64,000 nucleotides of DNA from a virus (lineage: Duplodnaviria; Caudoviricetes). The position numbers were made by a program, and so were the translations under genes. Where the stretch lies: IMG/VR virus record IMGVR_UViG_3300027847_001698, one strand, 5' to 3'. The notes under the pieces are model-generated. The model was not told the origin of the DNA. It ran no database searches and saw only the letters and a list, made by a program, of their open reading frames with translations. Of this stretch, positions 38,805 to 50,158 are shown piece after piece. Numbering within the stretch: position 1 is the stretch's first letter; each line of letters opens with the position of its first letter.

Positions 38805-39095
38805 TTACCAAAGGGTAACAATATCTCTTTTTTTATTAACTTTTTTCTTTTTAAATTTTTGATTGATATTTTTCAATCTAGAAATTTTAGTTTGAGCCGT
38901 TGTCTCCTCAACAATAGCACTACTATCTTGAGGAGATTCAATAGCTTCTTCTACCTCAGGAGCTTGTGCAATTACAGTTACTGGTCGTTCAGTTAAATAA
39001 TGTTTAACAATAGATTTCTTTTCAGATTCTAATCTATCAGCAACCTCTTTATGAATTGCGGGCATTGCGGACATCTCGAGCATTTCGAGTACCAA
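38805..39095 (-). CDS. Hypothetical protein
   Basis: Fills the gap; start uncertain, overlaps the upstream gene. Confidence 0.4.
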   Translation of the reverse strand: MVLEMLEMSAMPAIHKEVADRLESEKKSIVKHYLTERPVTVIAQAPEVEEAIESPQDSSAIVEETTAQTKISRLKNINQKFKKKKVNKKRDIVTLW

Positions 39096-39972
39096 CTTGC
39101 GCTTTCGAAGGCTCTAATCCATGTCGTTTATATAAATCAGCAAGAGCACGTTCATATTGAGAAGCAGAAGTAATCTTTCCAGCTGAAACAGCTTGTTTTA
39201 AACGAAGAACTCCAATTTTTAAATCGCTATTTCTTCCTGTTCCTATTCTAGATACCTTTCTAGCAGCATTAGCCATAGTTGTTCTCAAACTATTAGAAAT
39301 ATTTAATGGATTTAAATGTCTAACAGCTTTTTTTATTCCATGTGTAGTGTCTGTTTTATCTCTGTTATACTTTCTACCAACGGCATGGACAATGAAACCT
39401 TCTTGGAGTGTTCCTGAGTCATCAACTTTTTCACATGTTAATGCTAAACGAACTATTGCATCTCTATTCATCTTATGTGCCTTTTCAAGAATCTGACACT
39501 CAAAACTACAAGTAGAATTTATAGATTCACTTTCAAGCAAAGGAATACCGATTAGACAATTATCTAATGATATCTGCATAAACTTCTCATGAATTATTTT
39601 TCCTTGAAATGAATCTAGGTCTGTAATGTTTCTAGATGTAGATTCTGAGATTATATAATTCTTTAAACTAGTTTTTACACTATTCTTTGATAACATATCA
39701 GATGCTAACATTTTACTTTTCTTCGCAGTATTAACTGCTGATTCTTGTAAAGTCTTAACTGTATTAGGAATAACTCTATTTTTTGGTTTATAACCAACAT
39801 GATTCCAATACTCAAACAAATTACTTAATAATCCAGCCTTTAATACACAATATTCCCGATATGCACTTCCTTCACGAATAATGTTTCTGGCATGGCCATT
39901 AAATAAAATTGAGTCAATAGAATACCAGTTTTCCAAGTTAGTTGAAACCCTTGTTTTAAATGTCTTATCCAT
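39049..39972 (-). CDS. Hypothetical protein, possible internal head/scaffold-like protein
   Basis: Repeated xLxE(S/G) motifs (TLQES, LLESE, TLQEG) and a basic C-terminus. Confidence 0.55.
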   Translation of the reverse strand: MDKTFKTRVSTNLENWYSIDSILFNGHARNIIREGSAYREYCVLKAGLLSNLFEYWNHVGYKPKNRVIPNTVKTLQESAVNTAKKSKMLASDMLSKNSVKTSLKNYIISESTSRNITDLDSFQGKIIHEKFMQISLDNCLIGIPLLESESINSTCSFECQILEKAHKMNRDAIVRLALTCEKVDDSGTLQEGFIVHAVGRKYNRDKTDTTHGIKKAVRHLNPLNISNSLRTTMANAARKVSRIGTGRNSDLKIGVLRLKQAVSAGKITSASQYERALADLYKRHGLEPSKAQVGTRNARDVRNARNS

Positions 39973-40036
39973 AGTATAAGTAATCCTTGTGTATTTTTCG
40001 ATAATAAAAAATCTTTTATTTTTGTTCTGTTAGTAT

Positions 40037-40474
40037 TCAATCAAGTAAATCCGATAAGAGGGATCTATCTGGAATATCTTCCTTGTTCCTATTAGCTCTG
40101 TGTTCCATTCCTGTTATTTCATTATCAGTAAACAATAAACAAAATTCAGAACTATTCTCAACTATGACAGCATAGTAAAAGTCTTTTGCTTTCCAATGCC
40201 TCTTATTTTTATTTGGTACTTGTTCTATTCGGCCTAGTTTTTTAGAACTTCCGAATATTTTAGAGAATAATCCTGTATCTCGTTCTATGCAATCTTCTTT
40301 ATTTTTTGATGTTCTAACCAATGCTCTATCATATTCTTCATGTGTGAGTAACCAACATCTTTCATTTGAGCCATTTGAGTCTTCAACCCAAATGGCATAA
40401 TAAGCATTTTTAGCATTAGTGAATACAGGTTTATCTCTATTTATTATCTCTGTAACTATTCCCATTTTCGACAT
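40037..40474 (-). CDS. Hypothetical protein made of two tandem homologous domains
   Basis: YYAIWVED...RCWLLT...RTSKNKED and YYAVIVEN...FCLLFT...RANRNKED. Confidence 0.65.
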   Translation of the reverse strand: MSKMGIVTEIINRDKPVFTNAKNAYYAIWVEDSNGSNERCWLLTHEEYDRALVRTSKNKEDCIERDTGLFSKIFGSSKKLGRIEQVPNKNKRHWKAKDFYYAVIVENSSEFCLLFTDNEITGMEHRANRNKEDIPDRSLLSDLLD

Positions 40475-40485
40475 TTTTAATTCTC

Positions 40486-41781
40486 CTATTCAATTACGGC
40501 TTTATAACGATCTATAATTTCTGTTTGAATTGTCTCTTGTACTGCTGCGTCAAACTCTTTTGCAAACTCGGGATTTTCATTATATTTAACTAAACAATTT
40601 TTAGTCCCTTGCCATTTTACTTCTGGACATGTAATCAATTTACCCCATGCTCCAGGTTGTATTCTTTTATGATTTACTAATAAGTTATAATTAGTCCAAA
40701 AATTAGAAATGCCAGTATTGAAATCAACAACTAACTGGATAATTACATTTGGGGGAAATAACTTATTCTTTACACATTTAGCATCTATCATTACACCATC
40801 AAATCCCCATTGATCATATTTAAGATCAGATTTGACTTTCAATAGTAATAAATGAAATGCATTATATTCAATAGCCTTGCCTCCTGGCATAACTCTATTC
40901 TGGCCTAAGTATCTCAAAGGATTGGCTGTTTTAAATTGTCCTATATCAATTTTATCTCTTAATTGATTGATTGCTATAAGGCTAATATTACTCTTTCTCA
41001 TTTTAGAAATATATCTAGGTAAACAAGATGATAAAATTCTAGCCTTTAAACCCATTGTTTTTGCAGGGTCAGTTTCTTCACTCTCTCTTTCTTTATCCGT
41101 TGACGTATTTGCAATGGAATCCCATGCTACTATAGCTGGATAGTCTTCAATGCCTTTACTTATCTTGTATGCCATAGTACCTTGAATAGTCTTGAAAACC
41201 TTCTCAACCGATATATCAGTTGAAATTTTTAATCGTCTGGCACCCATTGATGCACCACGTTCCACTGTCATAGCTTCCTCTGAATCCAGGAACTTGTGTA
41301 GCAATTTACCATTAAACTTTTTCTGACTAGTGCCTATAATCTGAGCTAGGAGTGCAGACTTAAATGTTCCTGGTTCCCCAACAATAATTGAAAATGCACC
41401 ACATGCAAATCCTCCACCCAAAATAGCATCTAATACATCTACTCCTGTTGGGAAAGTTTCTATGATTCCTGAACTCTGACTTATATCTGCCTTTGTTTCT
41501 AAGAACTCAGAAAAGTCATCAAGTAATTCATCACTCTGAACTTGTTCTTCGTCAGATAGACCATTATCTTTCCAATTGTTGTCTGGCTTTAATACTTCTA
41601 CTTCTTGATCTTTCTTAGAATCTATTAATTTCTGTTCGTCTTCATTTAAATTGAGAGTCATGCTCTCTAATGATTTTTTTGCAGCAGCATTAAGTTCATG
41701 TTCTGCATTTTCATCAAATAGCTCTTCAACGCTATCAACAGTATCTACATCGTCAGGACCTATGGTTATCTCTTTAGGCAT
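40486..41781 (-). CDS. recA: RecA/UvsX recombinase with acidic N-terminal extension
   Basis: TGVDVLDAILGGG, Walker A GEPGTFKS, DSEEA, WDSIA, INQLRDKI, PGGKAIEY, KNKLFPP. Confidence 0.9.
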   Translation of the reverse strand: MPKEITIGPDDVDTVDSVEELFDENAEHELNAAAKKSLESMTLNLNEDEQKLIDSKKDQEVEVLKPDNNWKDNGLSDEEQVQSDELLDDFSEFLETKADISQSSGIIETFPTGVDVLDAILGGGFACGAFSIIVGEPGTFKSALLAQIIGTSQKKFNGKLLHKFLDSEEAMTVERGASMGARRLKISTDISVEKVFKTIQGTMAYKISKGIEDYPAIVAWDSIANTSTDKERESEETDPAKTMGLKARILSSCLPRYISKMRKSNISLIAINQLRDKIDIGQFKTANPLRYLGQNRVMPGGKAIEYNAFHLLLLKVKSDLKYDQWGFDGVMIDAKCVKNKLFPPNVIIQLVVDFNTGISNFWTNYNLLVNHKRIQPGAWGKLITCPEVKWQGTKNCLVKYNENPEFAKEFDAAVQETIQTEIIDRYKAVIE

Positions 41782-41847
41782 TTATAACTTCCTCATCTAT
41801 TCTACAAGTGTTAAACTTATTGTTAATTTATTCTTAATCGCCATTTA

Positions 41848-42216
41848 TTAATCCTTAGTTGAAACTTTAAGACCTTCCGATTCTAGTCTCGCTACAATGT
41901 CTCTAACGCCCAATTCTTCATCACCACCCGCAGCACTTAGCTTTCTTCTCACTTCAATTTCTTGTAGAATAAGTTTATTAATTTCTTGATTCATTGTTAA
42001 AATAGTAGAGAAGAAAGATGTAGTCGTTTTAACTTTTTCTTCCATTATGAACTTATGTTTATAATCCATATCCTTAGGAAAAATAGCAGAGACCCCATCT
42101 TTCAAATCATATAGATCTTGTAGATCAGTTTCTATTCTTGCTTTCTTCTCAGTTAGATCAGCTAACAGTTCATAAATTTTAGGATCAATTTTATCTACTG
42201 CAAAATCATCTGCCAT
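41848..42216 (-). CDS. Hypothetical coiled-coil protein
   Basis: Heptad-rich 122-aa ORF immediately after the actin-like gene. Confidence 0.65.
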   Translation of the reverse strand: MADDFAVDKIDPKIYELLADLTEKKARIETDLQDLYDLKDGVSAIFPKDMDYKHKFIMEEKVKTTTSFFSTILTMNQEINKLILQEIEVRRKLSAAGGDEELGVRDIVARLESEGLKVSTKD

Positions 42217-42218
42217 TA

Positions 42219-43280
42219 TTAATCCCCATAATCAGATATACCCTTTATTAATAATCCCTCCGCTACACATGCTAGAGGATCTTGAGCATGAACTATGTCC
42301 TGTATCTCAAATGGAAATTCATCATAATCACCAATGATCCCTTTAAACATATCCATGAACCCTTTAGCCATACTAGTTCCACCAGATACAACCACAGGGA
42401 CCGATTCGGGCAATTGAACGTCCTGTAGTTCATTGTCTAATTTATCTTTAATGGTGTCTAATGCATATGTTATTAAATTCTGATAGTAATAACAAATAGC
42501 TTCTCTAATTCTACGTTCTTTTTTGTTTCCTTGTTTATAATCCGAAATATCTGTATTATTTTCTTTTATTGATGTGATTCTGTTTGGAACTGTTCCAAAT
42601 TGTCTAGCTACATTGTCGTCAATCCAATCTCCACCTCTACCAACACTAAATTCCAAAACTAGATTTCCTTTAAAAGACATAGCACAATTCGTCATACCCG
42701 ACCCAAATGAAAATGAAAGCCCAGTAAAATTACTATCTGAACATTCATTATATATTATAGCCATTGCTTCATTGACAGGAACTGCTTTATATCCTAACTC
42801 GTTGAATATTCGCTTAAATACATTTGTATGGTACAAGATATCATTATTAGAATCTATTGATGCAGCAGGAATTGAATAATAACATATTCCGTTTTTGGTT
42901 CGACCAACTAAATGTTCCATAACTAATGCAAGAACATCTAATGAATCAACATCTGATGATGATATAAGACCGTCTTTCATTGGTCTCTTTACAGGATTAC
43001 CAAAAATATTAGCCATCCTATAAGCATCTTCTGATATGATGTATATCATATCTTCTGTTTCAACATAACTAAGTTGAGTTAAATCGGAAACATTTGACGA
43101 ATCCTTTTCAATTGGAAGATACATATTTCTGATACTTTTTACTGATATAGCCGAATCATTATCATCCTGTCGGGCACAAACTAAGTTCATTGTACCCACA
43201 TCGAGTCCAATAATATCTAGCTTTTCTTCTTGTTTAGATGTTAAATCTGTTATTTCGGATTCATCTTTTTTCTTTGGCAT
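42219..43280 (-). CDS. Actin-fold ATPase (MreB/FtsA/ParM superfamily)
   Basis: Phosphate-1 GLDVGTMN, connect-1 NEAMA, phosphate-2 FSFGSGMTN, GRGGDWID, adenosine VSGGTS, connect-2 AEGL. Confidence 0.8.
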   Translation of the reverse strand: MPKKKDESEITDLTSKQEEKLDIIGLDVGTMNLVCARQDDNDSAISVKSIRNMYLPIEKDSSNVSDLTQLSYVETEDMIYIISEDAYRMANIFGNPVKRPMKDGLISSSDVDSLDVLALVMEHLVGRTKNGICYYSIPAASIDSNNDILYHTNVFKRIFNELGYKAVPVNEAMAIIYNECSDSNFTGLSFSFGSGMTNCAMSFKGNLVLEFSVGRGGDWIDDNVARQFGTVPNRITSIKENNTDISDYKQGNKKERRIREAICYYYQNLITYALDTIKDKLDNELQDVQLPESVPVVVSGGTSMAKGFMDMFKGIIGDYDEFPFEIQDIVHAQDPLACVAEGLLIKGISDYGD

Positions 43281-43779
43281 CTTCTTTTCCTATATTCTTA
43301 AGGTTTTTTATTCTGTCTTTTATGTTTTTTAGTGGTTTCTTCTGTTTAGTATTTACTACACCCTTTACAGACATTCCACCTGTATCAATAGTTGGAATAT
43401 AATCATCAACATCATTCTTGTTAGTTCTTTGTTTAGATGTATCATCATTTCCAGATACAACAATTCCACTAGTCACCAATATCTGAAGTTGGTCATTTAT
43501 TAGAGCTAAAGACTTATCTAAAGATCCAGATTTATCATTAACTAATTTTTCCAATTCACTAAACCGTTTATTAACACTAGATCTTAATCTATTTATAGAT
43601 TTTTCAATTGTTGGTGCATCTGTATCTTCTTCATCATTACCAAGAACAGGAATATTATATTGATTGTGCATAAGGTCACACATCATGTCAAGATTTTCTA
43701 ATACCCGTCCTTCCCAATTTATCTTAAGTTTTTCAGCATCCCTTTCAAGTTGCTTGGTTCTCGCTTTTATATTACTCAC
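43261..43779 (-). CDS. Hypothetical coiled-coil protein
   Basis: GTG start; central heptad region; overlaps the start of the actin-like gene. Confidence 0.6.
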   Translation of the reverse strand: MSNIKARTKQLERDAEKLKINWEGRVLENLDMMCDLMHNQYNIPVLGNDEEDTDAPTIEKSINRLRSSVNKRFSELEKLVNDKSGSLDKSLALINDQLQILVTSGIVVSGNDDTSKQRTNKNDVDDYIPTIDTGGMSVKGVVNTKQKKPLKNIKDRIKNLKNIGKEDAKEKR

Positions 43780-43800
43780 ATTCCACTCAATATGTTATGA

Positions 43801-46302
43801 TTATGAACAACCACTAAATCCACAGTTTGTACACATTATGCAACCATTTTCATACTTTAAGGATTTAGTTTCACAACTGGCACAATAATCTGCGGATGTT
43901 TGTCCATCGTTGATATATTTCTTTAACACTCTTGAAATTCCTTTCTCAAAAGTAAACATATTTATATCTGATGTTTTGTGAAGTTGCTCACATATAAAAT
44001 GAATCGGTACATAATGTCTCAACATTGTTGATACCATTCTAGTATACGTTCCCAAATCCGGTCTAAATGAAGATGCTAAATCCTTTATTACCATTCCTTC
44101 ATCCCCATCTACAGATCCTAAATACAAATCATAAGTCCTAATACCATTATCACTTCTTTTATTTTTCTTAATCCACCCTGACTTATATTTAGACGGAATA
44201 GATATTTCTCCCTTCTGACCACCAAATATCTCATACGGTTGGCCATCAATTTGTCCTACAAAAAAGATCCATTCGTTTCCTTCAATAGTTGAATAGTGAA
44301 TATCACATTGTAACATATCAGGACGTTTAGATGGAAAAACTTCTTCATTTTTATCTTCATCAATTGGTTCTTTTGATATTAGAACTCCACTTCTGCAACC
44401 ATCTCTATAAATTGTAATACCCTTTAATCCATGTTTCCATGAGTCCATATAAATATCACAAACTTCATCAACAGTAACATCACTTGGTAGATTAATAGTA
44501 GAAGATATAGAATGAGTTATATATTTTTGAACAATGCCTTGAAGTTTAACTCGTTTGCTCCAATTGATGTCCGACGCAGTACATCCCCAATATGGAGATT
44601 CTTCTAAATTAGTTTTCTTTGTTGCTGTTCTCCATGCTGCTAACTGTGGATGATCTGTATCAAATTCCATCCATGAATCACCAAGGTCATCAACAAAATC
44701 AACTTTTGCACCTGGATCATTTGGATTTACCTTTCTGCGTCTTGTATATGATAATTGGTATACTGGCTCAATGCCGGATGAAACGTTAGCCATAAGTGAA
44801 ACTGTTCCAGTAGGAGCAACTGTACTTATTGATACATTACGTCTACCATATTTCATGTTTCGGTTATATATCTCAGGAAAATCAGATTTAAGCATTTGAA
44901 TGAAGTCAGAAGTTTTCTCTATGTTGGGATCGAATCCTGCAAATGGACCCCTTTCAACAGCCATATCAATAGATGAATCCCATTCAGCTTCACACTTAAC
45001 TTTCATTATCATATCAGTAATAGTTAAAGCATCATCGCTATCAAACTTGATATTTTGTGCCGCTAAACAATCACCTAATCCAGTAAAACCTAATCCGGTT
45101 CTTCTTCCCTGTTCTGCCTGAAAACGAATCTCCATCCATGTTCGTTTTTCTATCTCTTTTATATGTACAGGACAGTCATCAGAAGCTACCTTTTCTAAAA
45201 TTCTATCAATGTATTTAATTTCCAAATCTACAACATCATCCATAAGGCGTTGTGCTTCATACGTGTACTCATAAAACAATTCAAAATCAAACTGTGCATT
45301 TTCAATAAAAGGGTTCTTTACAAAGCTATAAAGATTCATACACATCAATCTACAAGTATCGCCGCCCTGCATCGCAATTTCCGAGCAAGGATTTGTAGAA
45401 CTATTCTCATACTGAGGATAAACTGAAGATGGCGAATAATTATGCTGAGTATCCCAAAAAATTAAACCAGGTTCTGCTGTTGAATGAGCAGATTCATTTA
45501 TCTTCATCCATAATTCTTTTGCATTAACAGTCTTGTAAATATTATCTGAATTACATGGCCAACACAAATCAAATGTATCATCATTTTCAACTGCATTCAT
45601 AAAATCATCACTAAGACGTACTGATATATTTGCACCAGTCACCTTAGTCAAATCGGCTTTAACTGAAATAAACGCTTCAATGTCAGGATGCCTAACGTCC
45701 ATTGTAATCATCAATGCTCCACGCCTTCCACCTTGTGCAACTTCACGTGTAGTATTAGAGAATCGCTCCATAAAAGAAACTGATCCAGTTGACGATATCG
45801 CCGCATTACTCACATGTGTGCCTGCTGGTCTTAAATCAGAAATATCGACTCCAACCCCACATCTCCGTTTCATCAATTGTGCTAACTGTTGATCACTATA
45901 ACATATACCCGCATATGAATCATGTGGGGGATCTATAACCACACAATTAGATAGTGATCCAATCTGTTTATCATTACCCAATATGGACATAATTGATCCT
46001 TGGGGTATTATATATCTAAATCCGTGTATAAGATGATAAATTTTAGAACGAGTTAATTGTTTTCTATTTCTGCCATACTCTGATAATTTTCCAGTATCTT
46101 TTACCTTTTTAGTTGATTCTACTTCAGATTTAAAAAATTCATCAGCCAATCTGCTATGCATATCATCTGGGGTTAATTCAAAATAGTTTCCACTAGAATC
46201 TTTTACACAATATTTATTTATCCACGTTGTTGATGGTAAATCTTCTCCGTTGAAATAATTAGTAGCGGCACCTAATACATCCTCAAATTTATAGCTATCC
46301 AT
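43801..46302 (-). CDS. nrdJ: Class II (adenosylcobalamin-dependent) ribonucleotide reductase
   Basis: SLSNC, RRCGVG, RRGALM, TNPCSEI, RRTGLG, APTGTVS, ISSTIN, YRDG and C-terminal CxxC...CxxC; no small subunit nearby. Start set at the ATG at 46302 behind AGGAG; the track ORF extends to 46389. Confidence 0.93.
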   Translation of the reverse strand: MDSYKFEDVLGAATNYFNGEDLPSTTWINKYCVKDSSGNYFELTPDDMHSRLADEFFKSEVESTKKVKDTGKLSEYGRNRKQLTRSKIYHLIHGFRYIIPQGSIMSILGNDKQIGSLSNCVVIDPPHDSYAGICYSDQQLAQLMKRRCGVGVDISDLRPAGTHVSNAAISSTGSVSFMERFSNTTREVAQGGRRGALMITMDVRHPDIEAFISVKADLTKVTGANISVRLSDDFMNAVENDDTFDLCWPCNSDNIYKTVNAKELWMKINESAHSTAEPGLIFWDTQHNYSPSSVYPQYENSSTNPCSEIAMQGGDTCRLMCMNLYSFVKNPFIENAQFDFELFYEYTYEAQRLMDDVVDLEIKYIDRILEKVASDDCPVHIKEIEKRTWMEIRFQAEQGRRTGLGFTGLGDCLAAQNIKFDSDDALTITDMIMKVKCEAEWDSSIDMAVERGPFAGFDPNIEKTSDFIQMLKSDFPEIYNRNMKYGRRNVSISTVAPTGTVSLMANVSSGIEPVYQLSYTRRRKVNPNDPGAKVDFVDDLGDSWMEFDTDHPQLAAWRTATKKTNLEESPYWGCTASDINWSKRVKLQGIVQKYITHSISSTINLPSDVTVDEVCDIYMDSWKHGLKGITIYRDGCRSGVLISKEPIDEDKNEEVFPSKRPDMLQCDIHYSTIEGNEWIFFVGQIDGQPYEIFGGQKGEISIPSKYKSGWIKKNKRSDNGIRTYDLYLGSVDGDEGMVIKDLASSFRPDLGTYTRMVSTMLRHYVPIHFICEQLHKTSDINMFTFEKGISRVLKKYINDGQTSADYCASCETKSLKYENGCIMCTNCGFSGCS

Positions 46303-46396
46303 TTTCTTCTTAGTTCTCCTAGATTTTTTAACTACAGTACTCTTCTTTAAGACCATTAAAAAAACTTCCTTTCTTGTCGGATTCTTCAAATCCTAA

Positions 46397-47143
46397 TCAT
46401 TCTAACTTCTTATGTAAACAAAGAGCGATACCGATAGAATCCGCAATATCTGAAGATACTCCAGTTTGTGAATAGATGTCATTTCCTATCACGGATAACT
46501 CTTTGTCGATTTCCTTTTGCTCAATCTTAAATTTGATTTTATTATTTTCATAGAGCAAGGTCTCATCCTTTATTTTGTTCTCTATTTCAACTTTTTCATC
46601 TCCACTAAATGGGTTTCGTTTTCTCTTCAATGACGACTTTAGTTTATCTAGAAGCTTCTTTTCACCAACTAATTGCTTTTTAAAGTTATCAATATAAATA
46701 TTCTTTTCTGCTATTAAATAATCAAAAGTTTCAAAATCACCAGTAACACTAATGTTAAAAGTTCGACATACCTCTAATTGTGTTTTCCATTTTGGTGTGT
46801 TGGATGCAATTCCATTCAATGAATTGGATTTCCAATGGCTAGGATCATACAATACAATATTGTCTTTTACTGCTGAATATGCAGCATGTATAAATACTCC
46901 ATTTATCCTAGCCAAATACGTCAAAGTCTTAGCTCCTGAAATAGCCAAGATTACATCCTCCATAGCAACATAATCAGGTTTATATCTATTAAATAATCGA
47001 GTAGCTTCATTGTGATAGAAACTTAATTTCTGAGGAAGACTTAATTTAGACGATGGGCAAATAGATCCATAATCAACTAACAATCCATCATCTAATACCG
47101 ACCACCCTGTTGTGGTGGCCGGATCAAAGCCTAATATTATCAT
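46397..47143 (-). CDS. ruvC: RuvC-like Holliday junction resolvase with coiled-coil insertion
   Basis: ILGFDP, VAMED and DIADSIGIA catalytic acidic motifs. Confidence 0.75.
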   Translation of the reverse strand: MIILGFDPATTTGWSVLDDGLLVDYGSICPSSKLSLPQKLSFYHNEATRLFNRYKPDYVAMEDVILAISGAKTLTYLARINGVFIHAAYSAVKDNIVLYDPSHWKSNSLNGIASNTPKWKTQLEVCRTFNISVTGDFETFDYLIAEKNIYIDNFKKQLVGEKKLLDKLKSSLKRKRNPFSGDEKVEIENKIKDETLLYENNKIKFKIEQKEIDKELSVIGNDIYSQTGVSSDIADSIGIALCLHKKLE

Positions 47144-47625
47144 TATGGAGTAACCTTCTCTCGTATATCCATTAATATTTTACCTAATTGATTTTGACCT
47201 CTATTTGAATAACCCCAATAATTACTAAACGGTGACATTTCCCGAAGTTCTTTATCTCCAGTTGAAATTAGACGTGACTTCAATTCAGGATTCTGATCAA
47301 ATTTAGCATAGCAGCCATCATACATCAACTGCCACTTGTTATTATCCCAATCATCTATTGACTTGCACCCTTTAGATATAGCTTTAGCTTCTGCTGGAGT
47401 AGTTGCCGCCTTTATGTATGCCCAGTCTCCAGGTTCATCACATCTTCTAGTATAATACCATTGTGCCACACTATCCCACCATTCATCATCCAAATAAAAC
47501 TTTGATGGATGAAATACTGATAGAAAATAAAACACACTGCTACTATGTGGACCATGGAAATCTATATAAGATACTCCTCTTGGGATATTTATAACTTTAT
47601 CTCTTTTCTGTTTTTTTAATGCCAT
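47143..47625 (-). CDS. NADAR (YbiA-like) family protein
   Basis: FLSVFHPS, AKFDQNPELK..LISTG, LRE.SP, YWG, GQNQLGKILMDIRE. Confidence 0.85.
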   Translation of the reverse strand: MALKKQKRDKVINIPRGVSYIDFHGPHSSSVFYFLSVFHPSKFYLDDEWWDSVAQWYYTRRCDEPGDWAYIKAATTPAEAKAISKGCKSIDDWDNNKWQLMYDGCYAKFDQNPELKSRLISTGDKELREMSPFSNYWGYSNRGQNQLGKILMDIREKVTP

Positions 47626-47640
47626 TTTATAACCTCTCTA

Positions 47641-48570
47641 TTATAAAGACCAAGATTGTGTATGTAATTTCACAATCTCAGAAGTAACATTCTCATTATC
47701 AGGAATACTAACAATATTACAAGCTAAGTCAAACTCATCTACTGAATTATCAAAGAATACTGTACATTCCAATTTGTGACATAAACAATATGTAATATAT
47801 CTCGACGGAAATCCAAAGAATCGTTCACATGAATGTAATATATTTACTATATTTTGATCCGTTACATTTGAAACTGGCATCACATTCAATAATTCTTTTA
47901 TTTCAGACATCTGATGATATGTATAATGTTCACTTAGATCACCTAATATGTAAACTATCAGTGATTTATGTTTTCTTGCTAAAAATTCTAAATAACTAAA
48001 CTCAATCATTTGGTCCTCATCAGATTTCTCTAAGTGAAGAATAATAAATGGTCGGTGTGACTGAATTCTTGCAGTTGGAGGCATTAAAAAGAAATCATCT
48101 TTCTTTAAAGAATTAAATTCTTCTATAACGCCATCCTGTTTATTATTACCATGAATAGTTTCAGGTTTACCTTTTGGTGTTTCTACTATTCTAGGATCCT
48201 TTTTCTTTTCCTTTTCAGTTCTCATATCAGAAGCAGTAAAATCAGTTATGCAATCATGATCTGCTTCCTCATCAACTTTTCCACATTCTACACATAAAGA
48301 TTTCTTTCGTCTATATGATAAAATAGTTTTTATTCGCGCATCCAATTCAGGAATAACCTTTAATGGAGTAGATTCTTCGGGTTTAAGTTCGGGCTTACCC
48401 GAAATTATATCTTTGTCTTCTAACTCAACTCCTCTCATATCAGATTTAACATAATTTTCATAACATGTATGTTCTGATTCAGCTTCCGCTGTACCACACA
48501 ACACACATAAATCTTTCTTTTTTCTATATCCGGAGATAGATCTCTTTTTGGGTTCTGATACTCTTTTCAC
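47641..48570 (-). CDS. Protein with two CxxC...HxC repeats and a degenerate GT-B/GT9-like C-terminal half
   Basis: Repeats YRKKKDLCVLCG...HTC...SDMR and YRRKKSLCVECG...HDC...SDMR. The C-terminal ILHSCERFFGFPS...CTVFF parallels the GT9 segment of the neighbouring gene. Confidence 0.5.
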   Translation of the reverse strand: MKRVSEPKKRSISGYRKKKDLCVLCGTAEAESEHTCYENYVKSDMRGVELEDKDIISGKPELKPEESTPLKVIPELDARIKTILSYRRKKSLCVECGKVDEEADHDCITDFTASDMRTEKEKKKDPRIVETPKGKPETIHGNNKQDGVIEEFNSLKKDDFFLMPPTARIQSHRPFIILHLEKSDEDQMIEFSYLEFLARKHKSLIVYILGDLSEHYTYHQMSEIKELLNVMPVSNVTDQNIVNILHSCERFFGFPSRYITYCLCHKLECTVFFDNSVDEFDLACNIVSIPDNENVTSEIVKLHTQSWSL

Positions 48571-48578
48571 TTAAATTC

Positions 48579-49811
48579 CTATAGTTGTAATAATCTATTT
48601 ATTTTTTCGTGTGCCTGTTCAAAATCAATATTATTGAAACAAGGGGACATTCCATTATCATTAAATGGACATGGGGTATGACCATGTAAACAACAGTATC
48701 GCCCACCATAACTACATACATCACTTGGCTTAGGTTCTATGTAATCAACATTATCATATAAACTAACTCGTATATGACCAGGAAATGGACCATACAATGA
48801 AAATGCAGGAACCCCCAATGCAGCAGATAAATGTACAAACGATGAATCTGGTGTTATAACCATTTTAGAATGGGCTATAATACTAACAGCAATAGCTATC
48901 GTTGAACTTAACTTTGATATGTTATATACATTCTTTCTTAAATCAGGAGGGATAGTTGCTTCAATAAACTTATCCATCTGTTCTTTTAAATCTGGTCTGT
49001 CAACTATGACTATAGTTCTACCTTGTTCTAATAATGGAGTTAAAATATTCTTCCAGCATAGCAATGAAGGAGTTCTAATAGGTGACGAAGCTCGTATCTG
49101 AACTCCTATAAATTCACCTGCGGTTATACCCATCTCTTTCAGTTTAGCAGCTACAATGTCGTTATTTTCAGTTTTAGTGTACTGTATGGGTTTTAATTCA
49201 TTATCCGGTATATCAAGTCCCATCCACCTTGAAAATAGTTTATATGCATTTACTTTCTTAGCTTCATTGCATCGCTCTATGACTCCTTCAAATGTTACAT
49301 GATAATCTGCTTTCTGAAAGTAGTTATAATCAATTGGTAGGTGGACCAACTCATCTATACATTCCCAATTATCAACTAATGAAAAGTAATTAGGAGCACA
49401 CGAGAAGATTATGTGACAGCTAGGATATTTCTTTTTGAGATAGTATAGATTAGGCTGGATAAACATCAAGTCACCTATTCCTCCAGTTCTCCACACCAAT
49501 ATTGATTTGTTAGTTAAATCTTGTCCATTGTATGGACGATATATATCTTTGAATTTAACCTTGGAAGGTTCTAAACATTCATCCCCATTAGGATCTTGTT
49601 TTAATCTATCATACAAATAGATAGACATTACCTTTGATGTTCCTTTTGTGAATTTATGCTTTGCAAATCTATCTATTGAAAATTCAAATGTGACTTTAGA
49701 TGTTCCTATAACCATACCTGGGGTAGATTTTCGCAACTCTTCAATATTATCATACATAGTAGTAACATCGCTATGGACAATACCTAACTCAGTTAATAAT
49801 TTAGGATCCAA
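48579..49811 (-). CDS. Glycosyltransferase family 9 (heptosyltransferase-like)
   Basis: RTGGIGDLMFIQP, ITPDSSFVHLSAALGVPAFSLYGP, and a C-terminal Cys cluster. Confidence 0.8.
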   Translation of the reverse strand: MDPKLLTELGIVHSDVTTMYDNIEELRKSTPGMVIGTSKVTFEFSIDRFAKHKFTKGTSKVMSIYLYDRLKQDPNGDECLEPSKVKFKDIYRPYNGQDLTNKSILVWRTGGIGDLMFIQPNLYYLKKKYPSCHIIFSCAPNYFSLVDNWECIDELVHLPIDYNYFQKADYHVTFEGVIERCNEAKKVNAYKLFSRWMGLDIPDNELKPIQYTKTENNDIVAAKLKEMGITAGEFIGVQIRASSPIRTPSLLCWKNILTPLLEQGRTIVIVDRPDLKEQMDKFIEATIPPDLRKNVYNISKLSSTIAIAVSIIAHSKMVITPDSSFVHLSAALGVPAFSLYGPFPGHIRVSLYDNVDYIEPKPSDVCSYGGRYCCLHGHTPCPFNDNGMSPCFNNIDFEQAHEKINRLLQL

Positions 49812-49813
49812 TT

Positions 49814-50158
49814 CTAATTTTTCCTCAGGTTCAATATTAATTCAGTTTGCTTATGTAATATAGAATCGTGTAAACAATTCAAGGTAGTTGAATCAAACAG
49901 AGTAACTGCTCTTCTACCAGCCTTCTCCAAAAAATCAAAATATTGAGTTATATGGGTTTCTACTTCCTCCATTTGAGAGATCGGATTCAATAACGATAAA
50001 GATATAGCTTTTATAATCGAATCATTTCCTTCACGGTATAACTCTTTCTTATCTTTGTTATCTAATATTTTAGATCTACTTCCTATCTTTGAAATCTTCC
50101 TAAGAAGTATTCTCTTAGTTTTTCTGTAACTTCCAACTTCAATTTTAATTTTTGCCAT
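49814..50158 (-). CDS. Hypothetical protein
   Basis: First gene of the long leftward block. Confidence 0.6.
   Translation of the reverse strand: MAKIKIEVGSYRKTKRILLRKISKIGSRSKILDNKDKKELYREGNDSIIKAISLSLLNPISQMEEVETHITQYFDFLEKAGRRAVTLFDSTTLNCLHDSILHKQTELILNLRKN

Follow-up and report, generated by a model that had tools for sequence, protein, structure and literature searches.

A Volactin-family actin and its putative cleft-docking adaptor in an uncultured marine jumbo phage

Introduction

To our knowledge, the cytoskeletons built by phages comprise the PhuZ tubulin of jumbo phages and one prophage actin, AlpC. A 64,000-nt stretch of viral DNA (the window), part of the 193.5-kb IMG/VR virus record IMGVR_UViG_3300027847_001698 (33% G+C), holds at positions 41848-43779 three genes, called here P0003, P0001 and P0002. 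A first-pass annotation made from the sequence alone read them as an actin-fold ATPase between two coiled-coil proteins, that is, as a filament with adaptors on both sides. The locus thus raises the question of whether it encodes a phage cytoskeleton, and which of the three genes would belong to it. The analysis reported here places P0001 in Volactin, a recently named family of actin-like proteins, points to P0003 as its adaptor, and assigns P0002, from gene order, to a neighbouring recombinase gene.

P0001 is a member of the Volactin family

The features of the actin gene and its upstream partner are as follows (window coordinates).

42219-43280, minus strand: P0001, Volactin-family actin-fold ATPase, 353 aa, assigned by PF25216, an AlphaFold2 (AF2) model and Foldseek
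43261-43779, minus strand: P0003, putative cognate adaptor, 172 aa, GTG start, with helices, a disordered linker and a bipartite tail
43393-43401, minus strand: first tail motif of P0003, Y127-I128-P129, of the form [FY]-[IV]-P, its Pro invariant in 46 diverse tails
43270-43329, minus strand: second tail motif of P0003, the C-terminal amphipathic helix (residues 151-170), with an invariant Leu

P0001 matches the Pfam family Volactin (PF25216) over model positions 3-319 of 321 with 250.3 bits (gathering cut-off 35; expectation value (E) 4e-74). Four control genomes respond to this model, Haloferax volcanii among them, and one control scores above the cut-off. The models for MreB (MreB_Mbl, PF06723; 17.3 bits) and FtsA (PF14450; 13.1 bits) remain under their gathering cut-offs of 27 and 31.8, respectively. 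No match of P0001 to the ParM family was found in Pfam or among PDB sequences, and no AlpC-like or other actin-family model of Pfam except Volactin exceeds its cut-off. A PDB sequence search with P0001 alone gave no match, and the family profile found MreB only (E 0.017). PHROGs contains no family for P0001, P0002 or P0003, nor for the neighbours of the actin in its relatives. MreB, FtsA and ParM, proposed earlier as reference families, can thus be set aside: P0001 is a true member of the Volactin family, whose studied members are filament-forming.

The ATP motifs of the actin superfamily, which the first-pass annotation had reported in full, were all located: phosphate-1 (D27-x-G29-T30), connect-1 (N170-E171-A), phosphate-2 (S191-x-G193-x-G195, with the caveat that Ser stands in the place of the usual Asp), adenosine (G300-G301-T302) and connect-2, which is the C-terminal helix. 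In an alignment with 39 relatives, D27, G29, T30, E171, G193, G195, G300 and G301 are invariant. The AF2 model, with 39 relatives in the alignment, shows a four-subdomain actin fold with a predicted local distance difference test score (pLDDT) of 88 and a predicted template modelling score of 0.86. The best solved folds retrieved by Foldseek are MreB, MamK and actin (E ~5e-14, template modelling score ~0.63, ~15% identity), and the best viral model match is gp506 of Bacillus phage G (12% identity). EutJ (rank 47) and viral Hsp70 homologues are likewise among the fold matches.

Two cellular proteins have been studied, of which one is a member of the family and the other a probable member. VolA (HVO_2015) of Haloferax volcanii, a cell-shape determinant, forms dynamic filaments whose tips are anchored at the membrane (PMC10869688, Schiller et al. 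2024). Mad28 assembles into filaments in E. coli and also polymerises in vitro; it deviates from the actin consensus in the same way as P0001, with Ser for Asp in phosphate-2 and xExx in connect-1 (PMC10653835). Since these relatives form filaments, P0001 most likely polymerises in an ATP-dependent manner into dynamic filaments as well.

The upstream partner P0003 and a conserved tail signature

Homologue searches indexed by short words, with P0003 and with P0002 as queries, each recovered only the query itself. Since small proteins of these types diverge too fast for such searches, they were collected through the actin, as its neighbours at 165 loci. The open reading frame (ORF) directly upstream of the actin gene nearly always ends with a shared signature, consisting of an acidic stretch and the motif [FY]-[IV]-P-[ST], followed after a spacer by an amphipathic helix of the form D-(D/E)-A-A-x-A-L-(K/R)-x-(L/M)-(R/K). 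Among 46 diverse aligned tails, invariance is confined to the Pro and a single Leu, at a spacing of 27-33 residues (median 30). A profile of the tail has a match in an ORF upstream of the actin at 73 of 86 viral loci; among the remaining 13, seven have a match 1.5-3 kb upstream and three are cut at the contig end. The profile also matches 16 of 18 Magnetococcales loci and eight haloarchaeal DUF7139 proteins, over a background of 9 matches among 1431 other ORFs, 7 of which are displaced adaptors. The median gap between the tail-bearing ORF and the actin start is 10 nt. Neighbours of the Archaeoglobaceae and Omnitrophota actins end in a similar terminal helix and are devoid of [FY]-[IV]-P.

The N-terminal parts (heads) of these proteins vary. 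Many marine phages have a domain of ~55 residues with a P-F-R-T-P-A motif, others a Cys-rich head, and the heads of the Magnetococcus and DUF7139 partners are hydrophobic and apparently membrane-spanning, as read from sequence in the case of Magnetococcus. A small beta domain is likewise among the head types. As the head is swapped across relatives and the tail retained, the protein has the appearance of a modular adaptor. The P-F-R-T-P-A domain (e.g. locus L022, 3449-3919, and relatives) matches no known family; it is possibly a cargo-binding head, of which P0003 seems to keep only the second half.

In its AF2 model, P0003 consists of helices at residues 2-41 and 58-103, a disordered linker containing Y127-I128-P129, and the terminal helix 151-170. 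The earlier description of both flanking proteins as coiled coils is borne out in P0003 as far as long modelled helices go. For P0002 the model is of low confidence, so that coiled coil is a plausible description of either protein, not one that the models strictly establish. Leads towards a scaffolding protein, obtained for P0003 from a feature search of a protein atlas (score 0.81), were discarded, as shuffled sequences reach that range. By gene order, tail signature and the modelling described below, P0003 is the cognate partner of P0001.

Predicted docking of the tail on P0001

Co-folding with the flanking proteins had been suggested as a check, and for the upstream protein the outcome favours binding. 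The last 75 residues of P0003 were folded together with P0001 in three runs alongside three controls, and the interaction prediction score from aligned errors (ipSAE) reached 0.75 (runs 0.71, 0.77 and 0.75), against 0.01 for the best control. Of 80 solved complexes, 58 attain the mark set for this score, as do 2 of 110 mismatched pairs; this calibration is only rough, as custom alignments were used. The runs have at least 63% of contacts in common, and the pLDDT of the partner is at least 58.

The contacts of lowest predicted error join P0003 residues 153-163 (tail residues 56-66) to actin residues 177-185, 204-206 and 341-349. These belong to the end of the inter-domain helix and to the C-terminal helix, which places the contact in the cleft separating subdomain IA from IIA. 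Actin residues 38-50, 67-76 and 82-84 are the predicted site of the [FY]-[IV]-P region, so that the whole predicted interface comprises the IA/IIA cleft and a path along IA to IB of a single protomer. The IA/IIA cleft is the site of ParR on ParM and of WH2 peptides on actin, and it also serves contacts along filaments. Since cleft and filament contacts are shared, binding of P0003 to monomers or to one end of the filament is suggested. The models thus support binding of the P0003 tail to P0001 by cleft docking in the style of ParR and WH2.

Distribution and phylogeny

A metagenome protein collection yielded 1413 homologues of P0001. An IMG/VR scan with a single protein as query found nothing, and an alignment-based scan succeeded, giving 525 contigs that encode a relative. 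By comparison, ~186,000 species genomes gave only 90 matches to the actin, from Magnetococcales, Omnitrophota, one Desulfosarcina, haloarchaea, Archaeoglobaceae and a few phage-like contigs of metagenome-assembled genomes (MAGs). Among GenBank phages the sole matches are two uncultured huge phages, and no cultured phage in the set carries the gene.

A FastTree phylogeny of the best 80 matches per collection, rooted with MreB and covering relationships rather than direction of transfer, resolves the archaeal proteins as one clade and those of Omnitrophota as a second. The third clade (support 0.98) contains all viral sequences but one, with 17 Magnetococcales sequences nested within it; the exception, from a huge phage (L008), branches outside all three. 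P0001 groups with two uncultured marine contigs, and MreB and MamK-like proteins are far outgroups. Because the Magnetococcales clade is nested among phage sequences, exchange of the actin between phages and cells appears likely.

The partners of the Magnetococcales actins (L091-L112) join a hydrophobic N-terminal segment to a tail of the phage type with [FY]-[IV]-P, a pattern which suggests transfer of the actin-adaptor pair between phages and cells. Actin-adaptor pairs of the phage clade were also seen on contigs binned as Neomarinimicrobiota, Clostridium, Thermoplasmatales, Halanaerobiaceae and Legionellales MAGs (L093, L095/L006, L100, L104, L106 and L127); these are probably mis-binned phage contigs. 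One further relative, P0071, encoded on a 42.6-kb metagenome contig, is a protein of 562 aa with 53% identity that contains an intein domain (PF14890) besides PF25216.

Hundreds of large phages carry the pair, as do certain bacteria and archaea. Neither the Volactin family nor the notion of a phage actin is new. The phage branch, its abundance and the adaptor signature were not found in the literature searched; three reviews on jumbo phages (PMC13282480, PMC7824862, PMC9123017) make no mention of a phage actin. With at least 525 IMG/VR contigs carrying the actin, a broader reading can be put forward tentatively, at somewhat less than even confidence. In this reading, a volactin-type actin with a modular cleft-docking adaptor would be the widespread actin cytoskeleton of large phages devoid of tubulin and chimallin, a counterpart of the PhuZ spindle that has been exchanged between phages and cells, and the tail signature would also point to the missing factors that anchor the filaments of archaeal volactin (DUF7139) and of its homologues in Magnetococcales. 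If true, phages would have a second, actin-based way to organise the infected cell. The tail signature, being short and sharply defined, lends itself to direct testing by peptide binding and point mutants.

Gene neighbourhood and the place of P0002

P0001 lies in a co-directional run on the minus strand, in the order ribonucleotide reductase (RNR), P0003, P0001, P0002 and RecA/UvsX-like gene, of which the remaining members are:

43801-46389, minus strand: RNR of the large-chain type (context), PF02867 with E 4.5e-89 and phrog_84; class not assigned
41848-42216, minus strand: P0002, 122-aa helical protein, putative companion of the RecA/UvsX-like gene, outside the actin module
40486-41781, minus strand: RecA/UvsX-like recombinase (context), PF00154 with E 1.6e-15 and phrog_97 with E 8e-46

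The position between a reductase gene and recA given by the first-pass annotation is accurate, apart from the class of the reductase, which is left unassigned here. The tight coupling it described on both sides of the actin is present too: the P0003 ORF overlaps the P0001 start by 20 nt, 2 nt separate the P0001 stop from the ATG of P0002, and purine-rich stretches precede the starts of both P0001 and P0002. No terminator-like site was found on the minus strand within the run from RNR to RecA, and the count of sigma-70-like promoter sites does not exceed shuffle expectation, so that operon boundaries could not be drawn from them.

Elsewhere P0002 keeps different company. Among actin loci its relatives are limited to the small clade of the window itself. 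A full-library profile search gave 300 representative clusters, and all six sampled contigs (L178-L183) have a RecA_N gene as the immediate downstream neighbour of the P0002-like gene. The flanks of four contigs are free of Volactin genes; in a fifth, Volactin lies upstream, separated by another ORF, and the sixth begins with the P0002-like gene. The family comprises helical proteins of 115-180 aa, encoded by uncultured phages whether or not an actin gene is close by, and has no Pfam, PHROG or PDB match; the Atlas model of P0002 is a helical hairpin. Since P0002-like genes are located directly before RecA-like genes, mostly in the absence of actin, P0002 is, on this positional evidence, a companion of the recombinase and not a member of the actin module. 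The apparent three-gene sandwich would then be a chance adjacency of two modules, and the filament-plus-adaptors idea holds for the upstream P0003 and not for P0002, which was rejected as a second actin adaptor on account of both its limitation to one clade of actin loci and its linkage to RecA-like genes elsewhere. In position and size P0002 recalls the T4 mediator UvsY. The analogy is positional only, and homology to UvsY was rejected, as no Pfam or PDB match supports it and tblastn found no match in GenBank phages. P0002 thus defines a large family of recombinase companions that is a candidate for a recombination mediator.

The source is an uncultured marine jumbo phage. The sequence also occurs on a 229-kb contig, and at least 11 metagenome runs of marine or seawater origin, produced by many studies, each contain at least half of its sampled words. 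The 193.5-kb record itself is incomplete (CheckV estimate 61%). It is classed in IMG/VR as 'provirus', although neither a tyrosine integrase nor ParB was found in it, and the label may be the product of trimming the 229-kb jumbo-phage contig. Two contigs of one metatranscriptome fall within P0001 and give a weak sign of expression, the uncovered parts of the window being uninformative in this regard.

Whether the genome also encodes PhuZ or chimallin had been raised as a check, and the answer was negative: phiKZ-type chimallin (PF25677), tubulin (PF00091) and the PhuZ C-terminal domain (PF22334) are all absent from the incomplete record, and PF25677 and PF00091 are absent from seven other volactin phages, two of them complete with terminal repeats. 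Both of the latter models recovered their targets in the phiKZ control, although a shell protein of very divergent sequence could escape these models. In the absence of a tubulin and a phiKZ-type chimallin, the P0001 system does not appear to be an accessory of the known phage nucleus.

Other phages surround the actin with different genes. An unannotated family of ~399 aa follows it in 55 of 87 viral loci (e.g. L007:4986-6104 and L040:5355-6551), and a 146-aa Zn-ribbon protein occurs nearby in 31 loci, often beside that family; neither is present in the record of this phage. In 13 related phages a GT9 gene lies just downstream of the actin (e.g. L013:5258-6511). A homologue of GT9-type glycosyltransferases is found in the window at ~48582-49841, ~5 kb from the actin and in the same gene run.

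Proposed function and alternative explanations

We propose a two-gene phage cytoskeletal module in which P0001 would provide the filament and P0003, translated just before it, the adaptor. The disordered tail of P0003, with Y-I-P followed after ~30 residues by the amphipathic helix, would wrap one actin protomer, the helix plugging the hydrophobic IA/IIA cleft as ParR does on ParM and WH2 on actin, and the helical N-terminal part of P0003 would dimerise and hold cargo. Because the pair is embedded in a run of replication and recombination genes, it probably positions or moves phage cargo, be it replicating DNA, a replication factory or particles under assembly, in the replicative phase, a role akin to those of PhuZ in chimallin phages and of AlpC/AlpA in CGP3. 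A dynamic volactin filament coupled by an adaptor to phage cargo during replication is the explanation that we favour, at a confidence modestly above even.

Several points weigh against it. Polymerisation of the phage protein, end-binding, cargo and timing we infer, filament behaviour being known for the cellular members VolA and Mad28. The Ser in place of the phosphate-2 Asp (S191) is nearly invariant family-wide among the 39 relatives, and no cargo-binding domain can be recognised in the head of P0003. The docking mode is supported by models, and co-folding may partly reflect learned ParM-ParR or actin-WH2 geometry; cleft binding is, moreover, equally compatible with monomer sequestration or capping in the place of cargo coupling. 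The metatranscriptome contigs may reflect DNA carry-over. Adjacency of the actin pair to RNR and RecA is confined to its own clade (5 of 87 viral loci), other clades placing the pair beside the ~399-aa gene or the GT9 gene. It was therefore rejected as a general clue to actin function, and the gene neighbourhood hints only weakly at a link with replication.

This lack of a tie to replication genes in most phage clades is among the arguments for a take-over of the host, in which the filaments would act on the host envelope or divisome, affecting shape, size or division, and not on phage cargo. VolA determines cell shape in Haloferax, and the cellular partners are membrane proteins, with a hydrophobic N-terminal segment in Magnetococcus and DUF7139 in haloarchaea. 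P0003, however, has neither a membrane segment nor an amphipathic membrane anchor, save for the helix predicted to bind actin, and no phage example of such a function is at hand, so that we regard this explanation as unlikely. P0003 might instead be a regulator that sequesters, caps or nucleates in the manner of thymosin or WH2 and merely tunes filament dynamics. Monomer-binding WH2 and thymosin peptides cover an interface of just the kind predicted here, the cleft of one protomer plus a path from IA to IB. Such a regulator would hardly explain why variable heads (transmembrane-like, Cys-rich or beta domain) are joined to a constant tail, and the long helices of P0003 suggest a dimeric tether; we therefore give it rather little credence.

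A protein of the actin fold need not polymerise, and P0001 could be an ATPase of the chaperone or kinase kind (e.g. EutJ/Hsp70-type) with its small partner as co-factor, to which both the EutJ and Hsp70 homologues among the fold matches and the substituted phosphate-2 Asp would be congenial. This is very improbable, given that the studied Volactin-family members form filaments, that the best fold matches (MreB, MamK and actin) are filament formers, that P0001 has no substrate-binding domain, and that the partner is predicted to dock in a cleft that serves filament contacts and adaptor binding. A partition system like ParMRC, segregating an extrachromosomal, plasmid-like prophage, would fit the type II logic of an actin with a cleft-binding adaptor, as well as the 'provirus' label. 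Yet no repeat array or centromere-like site was found in 39000-48000, no DNA-binding domain was detected in P0003, the 193.5-kb record lacks integrase and ParB, the gene order is opposite to that of parMR, and the genome has the features of a lytic jumbo phage. In view of the missing repeats, integrase and ParB, a role in partition is hardly to be expected.

Comparison with known systems

The proposed phage module shares with ParM/ParR/parC an actin-like filament and a small adaptor whose C-terminal helix is predicted here to occupy the IA/IIA cleft. It differs from it in that P0001 is outside the ParM family, the adaptor gene lies upstream, P0003 lacks a ribbon-helix-helix domain, and centromere repeats are absent from the region searched. 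MreB and MamK, the nearest solved folds, are nevertheless distant, as seen from the low identity, the sub-threshold PF06723 score and their position as far outgroups. In the Chimalliviridae, PhuZ and chimallin represent a cytoskeleton of jumbo phages that puts the replication compartment in place and transports capsids; PhuZ has the tubulin fold, in contrast to the actin fold of P0001.

Similar in organisation is the pair AlpC/AlpA of the Corynebacterium prophage CGP3, a phage-encoded actin-like protein co-transcribed with its adaptor as early genes that are required for efficient phage DNA replication (PMC4446434, Donovan et al. 2015). AlpA recognises a site within the DNA of its own promoter, whereas nothing comparable was seen for P0003, and CGP3 is a small temperate prophage, unlike the jumbo phage that encodes P0001.

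Within the family, archaeal volactin, known for its role in cell shape, has the same fold and motif set as P0001 and also a partner gene upstream (DUF7139), the C-terminal region of which matches the phage tail profile. It belongs to a clade separate from that of viruses and Magnetococcales, and its partner is a multi-pass membrane protein devoid of the [FY]-[IV]-P motif present in P0003. The factors that bind volactin are referred to as 'as-yet unknown' in the VolA paper (PMC10869688). Mad28, from deep-branching magnetotactic bacteria, shares phosphate-2 Ser and connect-1 xExx with P0001 and serves in magnetosome chains. In the Omnitrophota clade the partner is a long coiled-coil protein which, unlike P0003, lacks [FY]-[IV]-P. 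One magnetotactic Omnitrophota MAG (L117:1-6966) carries a tandem pair of PF25216 genes, for proteins of 330 and 481 aa, beside genes for HEAT-repeat, ParA/MinD-like and long coiled-coil proteins. The arrangement resembles a magnetosome 'mad' cluster in which Mad28 would be the actin, and it would identify Mad28 with the Omnitrophota clade.

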